From Mustelus asterias (taxonomy: Eukaryota): a stretch of 64,000 nucleotides of DNA. The notes below the pieces were generated by a model. It saw nothing but the letters and a program-made list of their open reading frames with translations, had not been told where the DNA came from and searched no databases. Positions within the stretch are counted from its first letter, which is position 1; every line of letters begins with the position of its first letter. The stretch spans positions 50,220,001 to 50,284,000 of the forward strand of contig NC_135808.1 of NCBI RefSeq assembly GCF_964213995.1, read 5' to 3'. Below, one piece after another: positions 23,140 through 64,000 of the stretch. Made by a program: the position numbers and the translations under genes.

Positions 23140-23468
23140 CTAGGCACATTCTGATCTACTGACGCTCTTGCTGAGGGGCGAGGAGAGGCTGACGTGTGTG
23201 AGGGCACAGGAGAAGCGGGCGTTGGACTCCCAGTCGGAGCCAGAGAGGGTCAGCAGGCTGCTGACGCTGTAGGTGTTGTCTGAAGCTCGCAGGTAGTTGC
23301 TGGTCTGAATCCCGTTGGAAATGGCTGCACCGTCCTTCTTCCACTTCACCTCCACCTCATCGGGATAGAAGTGATTGGCAAGGCACACCAGGGTGGCAGT
23401 GCCCTTGGTCTTGACCTCCTCCGGGGAGGGGGGCAGCAGGGTCAGCGTGGGTTGCGAATTCTCACGGG
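23140..23468 (-). CDS. IGKC: Ig kappa-type light chain constant exon (RENSQPTLTLLPPSPEEV...ATLVCLANHFYP...W...YSVSSLL...FSC...SRSECA*)
   Basis: TTCTCTTTCAG acceptor in phase with J; C1-set Ig motifs; penultimate Cys for the H-L disulfide; TAG stop. Confidence 0.96.
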
Positions 23469-29563: not shown

Positions 29564-30705
29564 CATTTCAGGAAACAACAGGGAAACGGGTTAAAAATCC
29601 AACTGCACACCTGAGCTGTGTGTACTGGTGCTGTGTGACAGAATGTGAGTTGAGACATTTTTCCGGGTGCTCCATATTCCTCCCACAGTCCAAAGATCTG
29701 CAGGTTAGATGGATTGGCCATGCTAAAATGCCCCTAGTGTGTTCTTTAGGTGGGTTAGCAATGGTAAATGCGCAGGGTTACAGGGATAGGGTGGGGAGCC
29801 TGGGTAAGAAGCTCTTTCAGAGAGTTGGTACAGATTCGATGGACTGAATAGCCTCCTTCTGCACTGTAGAGATTCAATGGCTAATAAAGGAATACGTGGA
29901 CTGTGTAAGGTTTCCACGGGTGAAGGGATCCATTTTAAATGAACCCTGTTGTGACCAATCGAGTGCGGGGTTCCAGCTGATTACTCCTCACCCAGGAGCA
30001 AAACAAAATGGGGATCCCATTCAGGAAGTTAACAAACGAGGGATCTTGTCTGAGGACTGGTCACAACATGTACACAGCAAGATCCCACACACAGCAATGC
30101 GAACAATCAGCATTTTCAGTGATGTTGGATCCAGGATAAATATCGGATTGAACTCGTCCCAGAGAGAAAGTAACTGAGAGTCTCCCCAAAAGCCTGGAAC
30201 ACTGAAGCCACTGGATTGTGGGCCCTGCTGTAGCTGTTTGTCATCAGAACTTTAGCAAGAGATAAGCAGGGAGTGGAGAGGGCAGAGTGAAAGCTGGGGG
30301 AGGTGGCACCTCGGTGTCTCACTGTGCTGGTGCTGTGATCAGTTATATCAGAGAGTGTGACAGGGAGTCCGACTTCACATCAAACTCTGCCTGTGTGTGT
30401 CACACTGAGACTGACAGGAGCCTAGAGAGTGATTTCACTCCATGCTGCAGGAATGTGAGCACAGTCTGCAAACGTCCAGATCTCCTCCACACGGTGGGTA
30501 AAAGCTGCTTACTTATATCTTGCTGCTTAAAGGGGGGAATGGAAGGAAAGAAATACAGCTGGGCTCCCTATTCCACACAATGTTCTTCAATCAACCATTT
30601 CATTGACTGCAGCTTCCTCACCAACACCTTCAACTATTCAGCATTTGTGTTTGAGAAAGTTTCAGCATTGAAAGGGTTAATAACGGAGGATTGGGCTTTA
30701 CTTAC

Positions 30706-30740
30706 TCAGTCTGAGTTTGGTTCCTTTACCGAACGTAAGG
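30706..30740 (-). CDS. IGKJ: Ig kappa-type J segment, cluster 1 (LTFGKGTKLRL)
   Basis: FGxG motif directly after the RSS, ending in A|GTAAGT phase-1 donor. Confidence 0.96.
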
Positions 30741-30779
30741 CACACTGACAGCTTCCAGTGCAGGAGCTGTACAAAAACC
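30741..30779 (-). other. 23-spacer RSS 5' of J, cluster 1
   Basis: On the + strand: CACACTG + 23 nt + ACAAAAACC (heptamer has one mismatch, CAC intact). Confidence 0.95.
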
Positions 30780-30818
30780 TCTGCTCTCTGCCTCACTCAC
30801 TCACTCACTCATCTCTTC

Positions 30819-31017
30819 NNNNNNNNNNNNNNNNNNNNNNNNNNNNNNNNNNNNNNNNNNNNNNNNNNNNNNNNNNNNNNNNNNNNNNNNNNNNNNNNNN
30901 NNNNNNNNNNNNNNNNNNNNNNNNNNNNNNNNNNNNNNNNNNNNNNNNNNNNNNNNNNNNNNNNNNNNNNNNNNNNNNNNNNNNNNNNNNNNNNNNNNNN
31001 NNNNNNNNNNNNNNNNN
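30819..31017. other. Assembly gap (N run) inside the V-J interval
   Basis: N run; the paralogous interval 63213-63297 is a GA-rich microsatellite. Confidence 0.99.
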
Positions 31018-31194
31018 GTTTTGTCGGGAGAGTTGAGAATTCTAATTTGAGATGATGAATCTTTCAGCTGCTCTTCATATGTGGACATGGAGAGTAAGAG
31101 GGAAACTCGAGGCCTTCAGCGAGCGGTGGACACCACAGGGACTGGAGTGTGTAGTGGACAGTGCAAATAATTTGTCCAGTTTCCTTTCTTGTCT

Positions 31195-31430
31195 TTATTA
31201 TATATTATATAAAACTGTGGGATGTGTCAGTACAGGAGGTGGGACTGTGTGTCCATTATTATATATTATATAAAACTGTGGGATGTGTCAGTACAGGAGG
31301 TGGGACTGTGTGTCCATTATTATATATTATATAAAACTGTGCGATGTGTCAGTACAGGAGGTGGGACTGTGTGTCCATTATTATATATTATATAAAACTG
31401 TGGGATGTGTCAGTACAGGAGGTGGTGCTG
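31195..31430. repeat. 61-bp minisatellite between V-RSS and J-RSS (~4 units)
   Basis: Unit tataaaactgtgggatgtgtcagtacaggaggtgggactgtgtgtccattattatatatta. Confidence 0.95.
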
Positions 31431-31440
31431 TGTGTGGGGG

Positions 31441-31468
31441 GGTTTTTGTAAGGCTCTGTATCACTGTG
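31441..31468 (-). other. 12-spacer recombination signal sequence 3' of V
   Basis: CACAGTG + atacagagcctt (12 nt) + ACAAAAACC, perfect consensus; V-12/J-23 is the kappa configuration. Confidence 0.97.
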
Positions 31469-31766
31469 TAGGGGTAGCTGCTATGTTGCAGACAGTAATA
31501 ATCAGCGACATCCTCATTCTGTACATTGCTGATTGTCAGGGTGAATCTTGTCCCAGATTGACTCCCACTGAATCGGTCGGATATTCCTGTGAATCGAGTT
31601 GCTGCATTATAGATCAGCAGAGCCGGTTTCTGTCCTTCTCGCTGTTGGTACCAATTCACGTAATTGCTAACAGATTGACTGGCCGTACAGGTGATGGTGG
31701 CGGTCTGGCCCAGGCTCACTGACAGCACCGGGGGAGACTGGGTCATGATGATGTCTCCACTGATAC
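31469..31766 (-). CDS. IGKV: Ig kappa-type (NS4-like) V exon, germline unrearranged, open frame
   Basis: Polypyrimidine-CAG acceptor; [23 protein letters not shown]...WYQQ...RFSGS...DVADYYC with canonical Cys/Trp/Cys; resembles shark NS4 kappa V. Confidence 0.96.
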
Positions 31767-31952
31767 CTGAGGGGTAATAGAGAAACAGAGTGAAGTAAGA
31801 ACTGTCACAGAAAGACGCTGTACAATGAGATATTGTTGGAGACACTGACTGTTCCTCTCCTTTCAGTATTTTCCCTTCAATCACAAGTCAGGAGAATTGG
31901 ATTGAAATGGAGAGCAGGAAAATATTAAAGGTGGAAGGAGAGAGATTTGTAC

Positions 31953-32001
31953 CTGCGATGCAGAATGCCAGAGGCCAGAGCAGCTGGATGGCTGAAATCA
32001 T
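31953..32001 (-). CDS. Ig kappa-type light chain leader exon, cluster 1 (MISAIQLLWPLAFCIA-G)
   Basis: ACC-ATG start, 16 hydrophobic codons plus 1 nt, then a GTACAA donor (phase 1); 186-bp intron to the V exon. Confidence 0.93.
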
Positions 32002-33600: not shown

Positions 33601-33634
33601 TGCTTTTACTTTACATCCACCATGGTGTCCATGT

Positions 33635-34880
33635 CCCACTGGTGCCTCCAATAGGGACCAGTAAACATGGGCCTCCATCCCACTGGAGCCTCCAGTAGGG
33701 ACCAGTAAACATGGGCCTCCTTCCCACTGGAGCCTCCAATAGGGACCAGTAAACATGGGCCTCCTTCCCACTGGAGCCTCCAATAGGGACCAGTAAACAT
33801 GGGCCTCCTTCCCACTGGAGCCTCCAGTAGGGACCAGTAAACATGGGCCTCCTTCCCACTGGAGCCTCCAGTAGGGATCATAGAGGTTTACAGCATGGAA
33901 ACAGGCCCTGCGGCCCAACTTGTCCATGCCGCCCTTTTTGTTTTACAACCCCTAAACTAATCCCAATTGCTGTATTTGGCCCATATCCCTTTATACCCAT
34001 CGTACCCATGTAACTATCTAAATGCTTTTTAAAAGATAAAATTGTACCCGCCTCTACTACTACCTCTGGCAGCTTGTTCCAGACACTCATCACCCTCTGT
34101 GTGAAAAAATTGCCCCTCTGGACACTTTTGTACCTCTCCCCTCTCACCTTAAATCTATGCCCTCTAGTTTTAGATTCCCCTACCTTTGGGAAAAGATTTT
34201 GACTATCTACCTTGTCTATGCCCCTCATTATTTTATAGACCTCTATAAGGTCACCCCTCAACCTCCTACACTCCAGAGAAAAAAGTCCCAGTCTATTCAG
34301 CTTCTCCTTATAACTCAATCCATCAAGTCCCGGTAGCATCCTCATAAATCTTCCCTGCACTCTTTCTAGTTTAATAATATCCTTTCTATAATAGGGTGAC
34401 CAGAATTGCACACAGTATTCCAAGTGTGGCCTTACCAATGTCTTGTACAACTTCAACAAGACGTCCCAACTCCTGTATTCAATGTTCTGACCGATGAAAC
34501 CAAGCATGCTGAATGCCTTCTTCACCACTCTGTCCACCTGTGACTCCACTTTCAAGGAGCTATGAACATGTACCCCTAGATCTCTTTGTTCTGTAACTCT
34601 CCCCAACACCCTACCATTAACTGAGTAAGTCCTGTCCTGGTTCAATCTACCAGAATGCTTCACCTCGCATTTGTCTAAATTAAACTCCATCTGCCATTCG
34701 TCAGCCCAATTGAACAAGATCCCGCTGCAATTGGAGATAACCTTCCTCACTGTCAGTAAACATGGGCCTCCTTCCCACTGGAGCCTCCAGTAGGGACCAG
34801 TAAACATGGGCCTCCTTCCCACTGGAGCCTCCAATAGGGACCAGTAAACATGGGCCTCCTTCCCACTGGAGCCTCCAGTA
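33635..34880. repeat. 44-bp minisatellite split by a CR1 insertion
   Basis: Unit gggaccagtaaacatgggcctccttcccactggagcctccagta at 33635-33877 and 34753-34880. Confidence 0.9.
33878..34752 (-). mobile_element. CR1 3' fragment, left-arm specific
   Basis: CR1 ORF2 C-terminus; absent from the paralogous array. Confidence 0.92.
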
Positions 34881-55199: not shown

Positions 55200-55975
55200 C
55201 CTCTCACTCACTACACTTGACACCAGGAAACGGTTAATACCATTTTACTGCACTGTGTCACTCACTACACCTGTCACTAGGAAACGGTCAATACTGTTTT
55301 ACTGCACCGTGTCTCTCACTACACCTGTCACTAGGAAACGGTCGATACTGTTTTACTGCACTGTGTCACTCACTACAGCTGTCACTAGGAAACTGTCAAT
55401 ACTGTTTTACTGCACTGTGTCACTCACTACAGCTGTCACTAGGAAACTGTCAATACTGTTTTACTGCACTGTGTCACTCACTACAGCTGTCACTAGGAAA
55501 CTGTCAATACTGTTTTACTGCACTGTGTCTCTCACTACACCTGTCACTAGGAAACGGTCGATACTGTTTTACTGCACTGTGTCACTCACTACACCTGTCA
55601 CTAGGAAACGGTCAATACTGTTTTACTGCACCGTGTCACTCACTACACCTGTCACTAGGAAACGGTCAATACTGTTTTACTGCACTGTGTCACTCACTAC
55701 ACCTGTCACTAGGAAACGGTCAATACTGTTTTACTGCACTGTGTCACTCACTACACCTGTCACTAGGAAACGGTCAATACTGTTTTACTGCACCGTGTCT
55801 CTCACTACACCTGTCACTAGGAAACGGTCAATACTGTTTTACTGCACTATGTCTCTCACTACACCTGTCACTAGGAAACGGTCAATACTGTTTTACTGCA
55901 CTGTGTCACTCACTACACCTGTCACTAGGAAACGGTCAATACTGTTTTACTGCACTGTGTCTCTCACTACACCTG
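55200..55975. repeat. 54-bp minisatellite (~14 units)
   Basis: Unit cactgtgtcactcactacacctgtcactaggaaacggtcaatactgttttactg. Confidence 0.95.
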
Positions 55976-60409: not shown

Positions 60410-60785
60410 CTACTGGAGGCTCCAGTGGGAAGGAGGCCCATGTCTACTGGTCCCTATTGGAGGCTCCAGTGGGGAGGAAGCCCATGTTTACTGGTCCCTA
60501 TTGGAGGGTTCAGTGGGAAGGAGGCCCATGTTTACTGGTCCCTATTGGATGCTCCAGTGGGAAGGAGGCCCATGTTTACTGGTCCCTATTGGAGGGTTCA
60601 GTGGGGAGGAAGCCCATGTTTACTGGTCCCTATTGGAGGGTTCAGTGGGGAGGAAGCCCATGTTTACTGGTCCCTATTGGAGGGTTCAGTGGGGAGGAAG
60701 CCCATGTTTACTGGTCCCTATTGGAGGGTTCAGTGGGGAGGAAGCCCACGTTTACTGGTCCCTATTGGAGGCTCCAGTAGGACAT
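60410..60785. repeat. 44-bp minisatellite, uninterrupted paralogous copy
   Basis: Reverse complement of the array at 33635-34880. Confidence 0.9.
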
Positions 60786-62103
60786 GGACACCATGGTCGA
60801 TGTGGAGCAGTTTCTTTATGTTATAAATGTGTGATTGTTCACTTTTGAGGAATTCACAAAGTGGGTGAAGGGAACTTGTAGATGTGATATTTAGGGAATT
60901 CCAAAAGGTATTTGATAAATTGCCACATCAAATCTTGCTACACAAGATACAAGCTGATGGTGTGTGGGTAACATATTAGCATTAATAGAGGATTGGTTAG
61001 CGAACAGAGACCAGAGAGAGGGGTAAATGATTGTTTTGGGGTTGGGAAGCTGTAATTAGTGGAATTCTGGAACAATCAGTGCTGGGACCACAACTATTCA
61101 CAATCCAGATCAATGACTTGGATGAAGGGAGTGAATGGAGCTGATGTCCCAATGACAGCAGCATGGTCAGTGCAGGCTTAGAGGGTCGAAGGGCCTGTTC
61201 CTGTGCTGTAATTTTCTTTGTTTTTTGACACTAAGATAGTTGGGGAAAGTAAGTTATCAAGAGGAGATAGAGAGTCTGCAAACAGATGGAAACAAGGGAA
61301 GTGAGTGGCTAAACATTTGGAATATAACTGCGTAAATGTGAAGGTGTCCACTTTGGCAGGAAGAATAGAACAGCAGGAAACTATTGAAATGGAGAGAGAT
61401 TGCACAACTCGGTGCTACAGAGGGATCTGGCTGTCCTGGGACATGAATCACAACAAGTTAGTCTGCAGCTACAGCAAGTGATTAGGAAGACAAATGGAAT
61501 GTTGGTGTTTATTACAAGGAGAATGGAATATAAAAATAGGGAAGTTTTACTGCAGCTGTACAGTGTCTCGGTGAGACCACATCTGGAATACTGTACATTT
61601 TGGTCTCCTTATTTGGAAAAGGATATCATTGTGTTCGAAGCAGTTCAGAGAAGATTCACCCGACACATTCCTGGGGTGAGGGGTTATCTTATGAAGAAAA
61701 GTTGGACAGGCTGGGCCTGAACCCATTGGAGTTTAGAAGAATGAGAGGTGATCTTATTGAAACATATCAGGTTGTGAGGGGACTGACAGAGTGGATACCA
61801 GGAGGGTGGTGTCTCTTCTGGGGCAGAGTGAGATGAGTGGACAGATGGATAGAAGTGCTGGAGAGAAAGTGATGGAGAAGGAGAGCTGAACTGAGGAAGA
61901 GAGAGGGAGAGAATGATAAGAGAGAAAGAATGAGTGAAGGAGAGGGCAAAGAAGGAGAATAAGACAGGAACAACAAGAGAGAGAGACCGAGAGAGGGGGA
62001 ACAGAGAGAGGGGGAACAGAGAAGGGTGAATAGAGAGAGCGGGAGCAGAGACTGAGGGACAGAGACTGAGGGACAGAGACTGAGGGAGGGAGAGAGAAGA
62101 AGA

Positions 62104-62198
62104 GGAAGTGAAAGGTGCTGACGTGGTTTCTCTGGGTCAGACCATTTACAAACTGAGGAACAGGCAGTGAGACTCTGACAGGCTGCAGCTTTATAAAG
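62104..62198 (+). promoter_or_regulatory. V promoter, cluster 2
   Basis: Same motif string as the cluster 1 promoter, in reverse complement. Confidence 0.7.
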
Positions 62199-62257
62199 CA
62201 GAGCCCAGTGAAGGGAGAGTTTATCAGTAACCAGGCACAGGGACACGACCACACACC

Positions 62258-62306
62258 ATGATTTCAGCCATCCAGCTGCTCTGGCCTCAGGCATTCTGCA
62301 TCGCAG
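62258..62306 (+). pseudogene. Leader exon of V-deleted cluster 2 (MISAIQLLWPQAFCIA-G)
   Basis: Matches the cluster 1 leader except CTG>CAG (L>Q); GT donor intact; intron truncated at ~62439 and fused to the minisatellite that lies 3' of the V-RSS in cluster 1. Confidence 0.9.
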
Positions 62307-62439
62307 GTACAAATCTCTCTCCTTCCACCTTGAATATTTTCCTGCTCTCCATTTCAATCCAATTCTCCTGACTTGTGATTGAAGGGAAAATGCTGAAAGG
62401 AGAGGAACAGTCAGTGTCTCCAACAATATCTCATTGTAC

Positions 62440-63035
62440 CACCTCCTGTACTGACACATCCCACAGTTTTATATAATATATAATAATGGACACACAGTCC
62501 CACCTCCTGTACTGACACATCCCACAGTTTTATATAATATATAATAATGGACACACAGTCCCACCTCCTGTACTGACACATCCCACAGTTTTATATAATA
62601 TATAATAATGGACACACAGTCCCACCTCCTGTACTGACACATCCCACAGTTTTATATAATATATAATAATGGACACACAGTCCCACCTCCTGTACTGACA
62701 CATCCCACAGTTTTATATAATATATAATAATGGACACACAGTCCCACCTCCTGTACTGACACATCCCACAGTTTTATATAATATATAATAATGGACACAC
62801 AGTCCCACCTCCTGTACTGACACATCCCACAGTTTTATATAATATATAATAATGGACACACAGCACCACCTCCTGTACTGACACATCCCACAGTTTTATA
62901 TAATATATAATAATGGACACACAGTCCCACCTCCTGTACTGACACATCCCACAGTTTTATATAATATATAATAAAGGACACACAGTCCCACCTCCTGTAC
63001 TGACACATCCCACAGTTTTATATAATATATAATAA
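62440..63035. repeat. 61-bp minisatellite, expanded copy (~10 units)
   Basis: Same unit in reverse complement. Confidence 0.95.
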
Positions 63036-63336
63036 AGACAAGAAAGGAAACTGGACAAATTATTTGCACTGTCCACTACACACTCCAGTCCCTGTGGTGT
63101 CCACCGCTCGCTGAAGGCCTCGAGTTTCCCTCTTACTCTCCATGTCCACATATGAAGAGCAGCTGAAAGATTTATCATCTCAAATTAGAATTCTCAACTC
63201 TCCCGACAAAACACTGAGACATTGAGAGAAACAGAGAGAGAGAAACAGAGAGAGAGAAAGAGTGAGAGAGAAAGAGTGAGAGAGAAAGAGTGAGAGAGAA
63301 GAGATGAGTGAGTGAGTGAGTGAGGCAGAGAGCAGA

Positions 63337-63375
63337 GGTTTTTGTACAGCTCCTGCACTGGAAGCTGTCAGTGTG
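63337..63375 (+). other. 23-spacer RSS 5' of J, cluster 2
   Basis: GGTTTTTGT + 23 nt + CAGTGTG, identical to cluster 1. Confidence 0.95.
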
Positions 63376-63410
63376 CCTTACGTTCGGTAAAGGAACCAAA
63401 CTCAGACTGA
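63376..63410 (+). CDS. IGKJ: Ig kappa-type J segment, cluster 2 (LTFGKGTKLRL)
   Basis: Identical to the cluster 1 J, with GTAAGT donor. Confidence 0.95.
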
Positions 63411-64000
63411 GTAAGTAAAGCCCAATCCTCCGTTATTAACCCTTTCAATGCTGAAACTTTCTCAAACACAAATGCTGAATAGTTGAAGGTGTTGGTGAGG
63501 AAGCTGCAGTCAATGAAATGGTTGATTGAAGAACATTGTGTGGAACAGGGAGCCCAGCTGTATTTCTTTCCTTCCATTTCCCCCTTTAAGCAGCAAGATA
63601 TAAGTAAGCAGCTTTTACCCACCGTGTGGAGGAGATCTGGACGTTTGCAGACTGTGCTCACATTCCTGCAGCATGGAGTGAAATCACTCTCTAGACTCCT
63701 GTCAGTCTCAGTGTGACACACACAGGCAGAGTTTGATGTGAAGTCGGACTCCCTGTCACACTCTCTGGTATAACTGATCACAGCACCAGCACAGTGAGAC
63801 ACCGAGGTGCCACCTCCCCCAGCTTTCACTCTGCTCTCTCCACTCCCTGCTTATCTCTTGCTAAAGTTCTGATGACAAACAGCTACAGCAGGGCCCACAA
63901 TCCAGTGGCTTCAGTGTTCCAGGCTTTTGGGGAGACTCTCAGTTACTTTCTCTTTGGGACGAGTTCAGTCCGATATTTATCCCGGATCCAACATCACTGA

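Follow-up and report, generated by a model that had tools for sequence, protein, structure and literature searches.

Cluster 2, one of two Ig light-chain clusters in the 64,000 nucleotides analysed here (G000:C8:50,220,001-50,284,000, hereafter the window), is probably a young pseudo-cluster, i.e. an Ig kappa minicluster in which one 395-bp deletion removed the V segment together with its 12-RSS and was then copied to three places. On its own, a V-less cluster amounts to a damaged copy of an Ig gene and is of limited interest; the surrounding array is of greater importance. The accepted view is that rearrangement of shark Ig genes stays inside each cluster, and the products by which RAG activity in the germline has been recognised are coding joints and a single hybrid joint. 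We tentatively propose that this genome may record recent germline RAG activity between clusters, namely in a kappa cluster (G) with a zero-length D, in three joints of TCR-delta type and in V-less J-C units that could be used as targets. If this is true, an inter-cluster signal joint kept in the genome would supply the RAG product that had been missing, and it would become testable whether D segments arise from such joints and whether shark light chains join across clusters. For the latter question the V-less J-C units would offer a clean assay, because any V in front of them must be that of another cluster.

The kappa array

Searches of the animal's own genome revealed shark Ig kappa genes of the NS4 type in 21 clusters, which form a 0.9-Mb array. 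All matches lie on C8:50.17-51.09 Mb and comprise 21 promoters and leaders, 18 V segments, 21 J segments plus one bare 23-RSS, and 22 C exons. The clusters were named A to U in their order, and the window holds clusters C (cluster 1) and D (cluster 2). Assignment to NS4 is based on the published nurse shark NS4 primers, which show two mismatches to the leader and one to J, on the leader intron, which measures 186 bp in an intact paralogue as it does in NS4, and on the single open C exon with a phase-1 acceptor, which is also present in cluster 2. NS4, or type III, corresponds to kappa according to PMC5192425. A PDB search confirmed only that the V is an Ig light-chain V.

A V with a 12-RSS faces a 23-RSS-J in 18 of the 21 clusters, the exceptions being cluster 2 (D), J and L. 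The V exon is open, the 12-RSS intact and the leader identical in all 18, and J-kappa is identical across all clusters. The split V-12RSS/23RSS-J arrangement and the many near-identical miniclusters resemble shark kappa NS4 and horn shark type III as described in PMC2193156. About 10% of the NS4 genes are germline-joined in that account, whereas none of the 18 V segments is joined to J here; further differences are the three V-less clusters and an intervening sequence made of a variable minisatellite.

Cluster orientation mostly alternates, at a spacing of 25-75 kb, and the pairs A/I, D/J, H/N and K/M are near-identical. Clusters B and P have similar 5' flanks (99.1%) but not 3' flanks. Cluster T carries a 407-bp insertion within its leader intron, and the J-C introns of clusters S and T extend over 14-16 kb. 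An orphan open C-kappa exon lies at C8:50,977,560-50,977,940, in a neighbourhood free of matches to J, V or promoter. The minisatellite between V and J comprises 4-59 units and thereby sets a V-J distance of 0.6 to 4 kb, which may influence the rearrangement rate. Further minisatellites of 54 and 44 bp, common to the clusters, are located upstream of kappa promoters (55204-55975, 60410-60778 and 33634-33877 in the window). Judging from the sequence, with its orphan C, its 4-59 repeat units and its exchanged 5' and 3' flanks, the array is structurally unstable.

The V deletion and its copies

Cluster 2 lies on the forward strand. Its kappa promoter and 5' UTR (62100-62257), with the TATA-like motif TTTATAAA at 62190-62197, are as in the V-bearing clusters. 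The leader exon (62258-62306) ends in a phase-1 donor and carries a T>A change at 62289 that replaces Leu11 by Gln. Of the leader intron, which measures 186 bp in full, the first 133 bp follow (62307-62439), and the acceptor is gone. At the deletion junction 62439/62440 (62438-62441) the intron passes directly into a 61-bp minisatellite of 9.8 units (62440-63035), which is present in all 21 clusters and offers one cryptic AG per unit that leads to a stop. The remaining V-J intervening sequence with a GA-rich microsatellite (63036-63336), an intact 23-RSS (63337-63375; nonamer 63337-63345, heptamer CAGTGTG 63369-63375) and J-kappa (63376-63410, encoding FGKGTKLRL, with its donor GT at 63411) complete the part within the window. 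The open C exon of the cluster follows 6.7 kb past J, beyond the window (G000:C8:50,290,074-50,290,402).

Cluster 1 provides the intact counterpart on the reverse strand and points away from cluster 2. Its leader-V-12RSS-IVS-23RSS-J unit spans 30697-32001, with the leader at 32001-31953, the V exon at 31766-31469 (298 bp), the 12-RSS at 31468-31441 and the V-J minisatellite at 31195-31435; its C-kappa exon lies at 23140-23468. Between the promoter and 62439 the two clusters differ by three substitutions, after which the 61-bp repeat begins in cluster 2. The stretch at 31425-31819, containing the 3' part of the intron, the V exon and the 12-RSS, has no counterpart there. This bears out the earlier note on this DNA, which had reported a loss of at least 395 bp including the intron acceptor, V and the 12-RSS, with promoter, leader donor, 23-RSS and J retained; all four were found intact. 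In comparisons with all 18 clusters that carry a V, 395-396 bp are missing each time, and two bases (AC) at the junction can be assigned to either side. End joining at a microhomology of 2 bp would have sealed the break.

Two other origins of the deletion were considered and dropped. A RAG-exact origin was rejected with neither breakpoint at a heptamer border, although a resected RAG break is possible. A join between two clusters was considered as well, as clusters D, J and L are similar to H/N upstream (95-97%) and to B/F downstream (97.5%). This switch of flanks cannot be placed at the deletion junction, since a comparable exchange is seen between B and P, which both retain V.

The earlier note had described the junction for cluster 2. 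A comparison of the 21 clusters revealed the same base-exact junction in clusters D, J (C8:50.508 Mb) and L (C8:50.583 Mb), one of which, L, encodes the usual Leu in its leader and has 14 repeat units, compared with 10 in D and J. All three have kept J, the 23-RSS and an open C exon, which points to one deletion that was copied afterwards. Over 27 kb, 15 sites distinguish D from J (99.94% identity), while D and L are 98.7-99.4% identical; hence, there are at least two distinct copies, and D and J may be a very recent or a false duplicate. The divergence of L, its unit number and its Leu leader suggest that a single deletion was followed by the Leu-to-Gln change in one branch and make a collapse unlikely. 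This change is the sole leader variant among the 21 clusters and is confined to the V-less clusters D and J. It would have arisen after the deletion as a sign of decay, and pseudogene decay, which the earlier note had named as the alternative, fits the cluster best. No changes in C or J are private to the V-less copies, as the three sites at which their C exons differ vary in V-bearing clusters too. What speaks against a pseudo-cluster is that damage after the deletion is found only in the leader, and that the allele was retained in three copies.

That the loss of V reflects an assembly error beside the minisatellite appears highly improbable. The junction does adjoin a tandem repeat and is without confirmation from a read set, and one of the nearly identical clusters D and J may be a false duplicate. 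However, the junction is base-exact at three places with differing arrays (10, 10 and 14 units), the V-less copies have differing leader alleles and a flank divergence of 0.6-1.3%, and V was kept in the 18 other clusters next to arrays of up to 59 units. One contig of a DNA run (X4) crosses the junction position unbranched, which neither shows nor excludes the deletion because contigs prune rare branches. A metagenome scan for the V-less junction gave no matches.

Products and possible uses of a V-less cluster

The leader donor is in phase 1, as the earlier note had stated, and splicing of the leader to the cluster's own C exon yields an open frame of 125 amino acids. If the promoter is active, most RNA would either be spliced to the cryptic acceptors of the repeat and meet an early stop, or skip to C. 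The latter would give a leader-C-kappa fragment of a type that is known as a by-product in mammals. In mouse and human, V-less kappa chains arise from skipping of the V exon in rearranged genes, with the leader exon fused to C-kappa in frame as in the predicted product of cluster 2, and cause ER stress and plasma cell death (bioRxiv 2024.08.30.610519); in cluster 2 such a form, as yet a prediction, would be fixed in the germline. V-less IgW transcripts with the leader spliced straight to a constant exon occur in spiny dogfish (8% of IgW) and nurse shark, as described in PMC5192425. These were seen as RNA and are ascribed to alternative splicing of a heavy chain, whereas the cluster 2 form is a predicted kappa product, but they indicate that V-less RNA is not always noise.

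The earlier note had further suggested a lambda5-like leader-J-C product. The mammalian lambda5 gene (IGLL1) has no V, works independently of rearrangement and encodes a non-Ig unique region between leader and J. Cluster 2 resembles it in that V is missing, rearrangement would not be needed and a J-C order is possible. It differs in that it is kappa and not lambda, has no unique region and no proper J acceptor, has kept its 23-RSS, is of recent origin and has only a hypothetical partner. The AG of the heptamer does provide an in-frame leader-J-C product, as had been proposed, but the supposedly variant heptamer is nothing special: CAGTGTG is common to all 21 clusters, and a particular role of it was discarded. 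Its poor pyrimidine tract, also pointed out before, is confirmed by pyrimidine fractions of 0.50 for the heptamer AG, 0.70 for the repeat AGs, 0.85 for the true V acceptor and 0.80 for the true C acceptor, a crude score rather than a trained model. Ten repeat units thus have a better tract than the heptamer AG, and each of them leads to a stop at codon 22. In place of a unique region, the in-frame options would supply no more than 18 residues, encoded in the RSS region and reached through purine-rich AGs. Neither an acceptor of normal strength in front of J nor a conserved or private feature other than the leader change was found, and the lambda5-like reading is unsupported.

For these reasons, a functional rearrangement-independent chain (leader-C or leader-J-C), either lambda5-like or as a secreted C-kappa partner, is very unlikely to be encoded by the cluster. 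Its open frames, the unchanged promoter, the presence of three copies and the normal leader exon of copy L are compatible with such a role. The intact frame is uninformative, however, because the neutral probability that leader and C escape any inactivating change is 0.83, 0.68 and 0.47 at branch lengths of 0.5, 1 and 2%, respectively, using rough rates. The end of the signal peptide is affected as well: the last four leader residues were encoded in the deleted exon, and the best hydropathy over eight residues decreases from 2.66 in the normal leader to 2.18 in cluster L and 2.0 in cluster D. The toxicity of V-less kappa chains in mammals also argues against a function, as does the situation in fish, for which no component of a surrogate light chain is known, lambda5 and VpreB included (PMC5192425).

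We also searched RNA and DNA runs and protein collections. Among the 24 runs listed, the best share of words from the cluster D C exon and UTR was 0.61, and none of the runs could be attributed to this animal. Four runs were placed on the leader-V-J part of the intact cluster P, a stretch that leaves C outside; three of them gave cover and one (X7) none, and the placed contigs had 71 loose ends, with 844 pieces beyond those listed. Contigs of RNA run X1, of unspecified tissue, contain the leader-V splice (depth 540) and, in this run only, two V-J joints with added bases. A leader-J joint was not among the joints listed for this run, the contigs of which drop rare forms. Cover of 1.5 repeat units at depth 88 in the same run fits unrearranged and V-less RNA alike. 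A protein search with the C exon gave two matches, both partial V-J-C chains and the two that scored among 17 candidate proteins of 59-189 amino acids; it is a weak search because the collection contains few shark proteins. Partial V-J-C proteins of shark-type kappa (97% and 84% identical to this C) are present under bacterial names in public records, likely as contamination.

Cluster 2 alone would be unable to assemble a VJ. Its single plausible remaining use is passive, namely as a spare 23-RSS-J-C target for the V of another cluster; the V of cluster 1, for example, could join the J of cluster 2 by a 32-kb inversion. That V-less clusters serve in B cells as extra J-C acceptors, which the V of an oppositely oriented neighbour joins by inversion, is nevertheless unlikely. 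Such acceptors would add a route for rearrangement or editing, and 23-RSS, J and C are intact in D, J and L. The mostly alternating orientation and the spacing of the clusters would suit inversional joining, which has been demonstrated between zebrafish IgL clusters (PMC3014032), and cluster G contains an exact signal joint with flanks of two lineages (see below). Against this, 97 shark IgH intermediates were within-cluster, with one possible exception (PMC2435157), and shark IgL is likewise described as within-cluster in PMC3014032 and PMC12227049. Moreover, no diversity would be gained by joining across clusters, as J is identical in all of them.

Signal joints in cluster G and in TCR-delta contigs

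Cluster G, on the reverse strand and 119 kb past the window end, contains a signal joint at C8:50,402,778/50,402,777. It is laid out as V-12RSS-IVS-23RSS/12RSS-IVS-23RSS-J-C, with the two inner heptamers fused without loss or gain of bases and no nonamer mismatches on either side. The pattern of the joint has a single match in the genome, while the reversed control has none. As a further control, 15 of 84 sites with the bare palindrome were checked and showed 7-13 nonamer mismatches each. A search for a 23-RSS followed by GTGCAC gave seven matches, six of which were dropped as they are without a second RSS.

Over the 11.2 kb that precede the joint, clusters G and K match without a gap (20 mismatches in 11,223 sites); from there on G diverges. 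Upstream, G shares 19 of 19 sites private to K/M (seven clusters aligned); in the 4.5 kb from J it shares none of 17 (nine clusters aligned). The flanks of the joint thus come from two lineages, against a background in which flank swaps also exist, as in the B/P pair, which has no joint at all. A second contrary observation is that G becomes K/M-like again around C, at about 0.7%. On balance, the joint probably resides in the germline and, with similar confidence, connects two clusters, and it is likely that RAG acted between clusters of the array at least once. In the simplest path, a K-like cluster would have contributed the 23-RSS and a downstream cluster the 12-RSS to a RAG joint, the coding counterpart of which would have been lost.

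It is possible, though we regard it as the less probable account, that the joint in cluster G instead goes back to the re-insertion of an excision circle, or to a somatic molecule from a lymphocyte that entered the assembly. RAG can re-insert excised circles into Ig and TCR targets, which gives the same order of parts (PMC1820826). The joint is known here from the assembly alone, flanks are exchanged in the array without a signal joint as well, and the halves of three TCR-delta joints (see below) have unrearranged counterparts of 98-100% identity on other contigs. Re-insertion of a circle, however, keeps the flank of the host (K) after J and would need a second exchange, whereas G has lost all K/M-private sites at this place; in addition, the RSS-J border of G is untrimmed. 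A somatic molecule requires both intact parents, but an intact 5' half of G's downstream lineage is not among the matches, and neither is a joined VJ or a spare J-C unit with J. The 20 differences between G and K upstream of the joint also speak against this account. The joint was absent among those listed for X4 and X2 contigs on a paralogue, in which such links are pruned, and a metagenome scan for it gave no matches.

An inter-cluster germline join would connect cluster G to an older idea. Lewis and Wu (2000; PMC2193153) postulated that signal joints between clusters, with bases inserted, gave rise to D segments; the shark evidence they cited concerns coding and hybrid joints only. From its sequence alone, cluster G is likely the zero-length D intermediate of this scheme. 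Germline RAG joining in sharks has been described for NS4 coding joints (PMC2193156). Cluster G and three TCR-delta sites resemble the published shark products, i.e. joined VJ and VDJ and a hybrid-joint inversion, in being RSS-exact, but are signal joints and not coding or hybrid joints (PMC2193153, PMC2193156). A literature search, covering mostly openly available papers, found neither signal joints nor V-less kappa clusters reported from the germline of a shark, and the accessible part of PMC13433984 contains nothing on either.

Pattern searches and their follow-up revealed these three further exact signal joints in contigs C122, C110 and C71, which we take to be NAR-TCR/TCR-delta-like from the likeness of their motifs. 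The joint at C122:398,928/929 is one end of a 5.77-kb inversion (C122:393,165-398,929) relative to an intact paralogue at C71:12,223,955-12,229,725, with which it is 99.5% identical and from which it diverges further out. The other end of the inversion is a coding joint between V-delta and NAR-D with one base lost and none added, so that one signal joint of TCR-delta type has its reciprocal coding joint. At C110:113,696/697, a D-delta 12-RSS is joined to a NAR-V 22-RSS; 0.8 kb further on (to 114,480), an inverted NAR V lies directly against an RSS of J type whose heptamer is altered, forming an imprecise, hybrid-like joint. At C71:14,376,803/804, the 5' 12-RSS of D-delta, the same as in the C110 joint, is joined to a 23-RSS; no J motif was found in the next 55 kb, and an inverted V 23-RSS lies at C71:14,432,184. 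The contigs concerned are fragmented, and an allelic or somatic origin appears more plausible for these joints. Their exactness does not separate germline, allelic and somatic origins, because signal joints in thymocytes are mostly exact as well (PMC2192893). At C110:85,014-85,071, a NAR-TCR-like V is directly followed by a 12-RSS, which is likely a germline V-D join.
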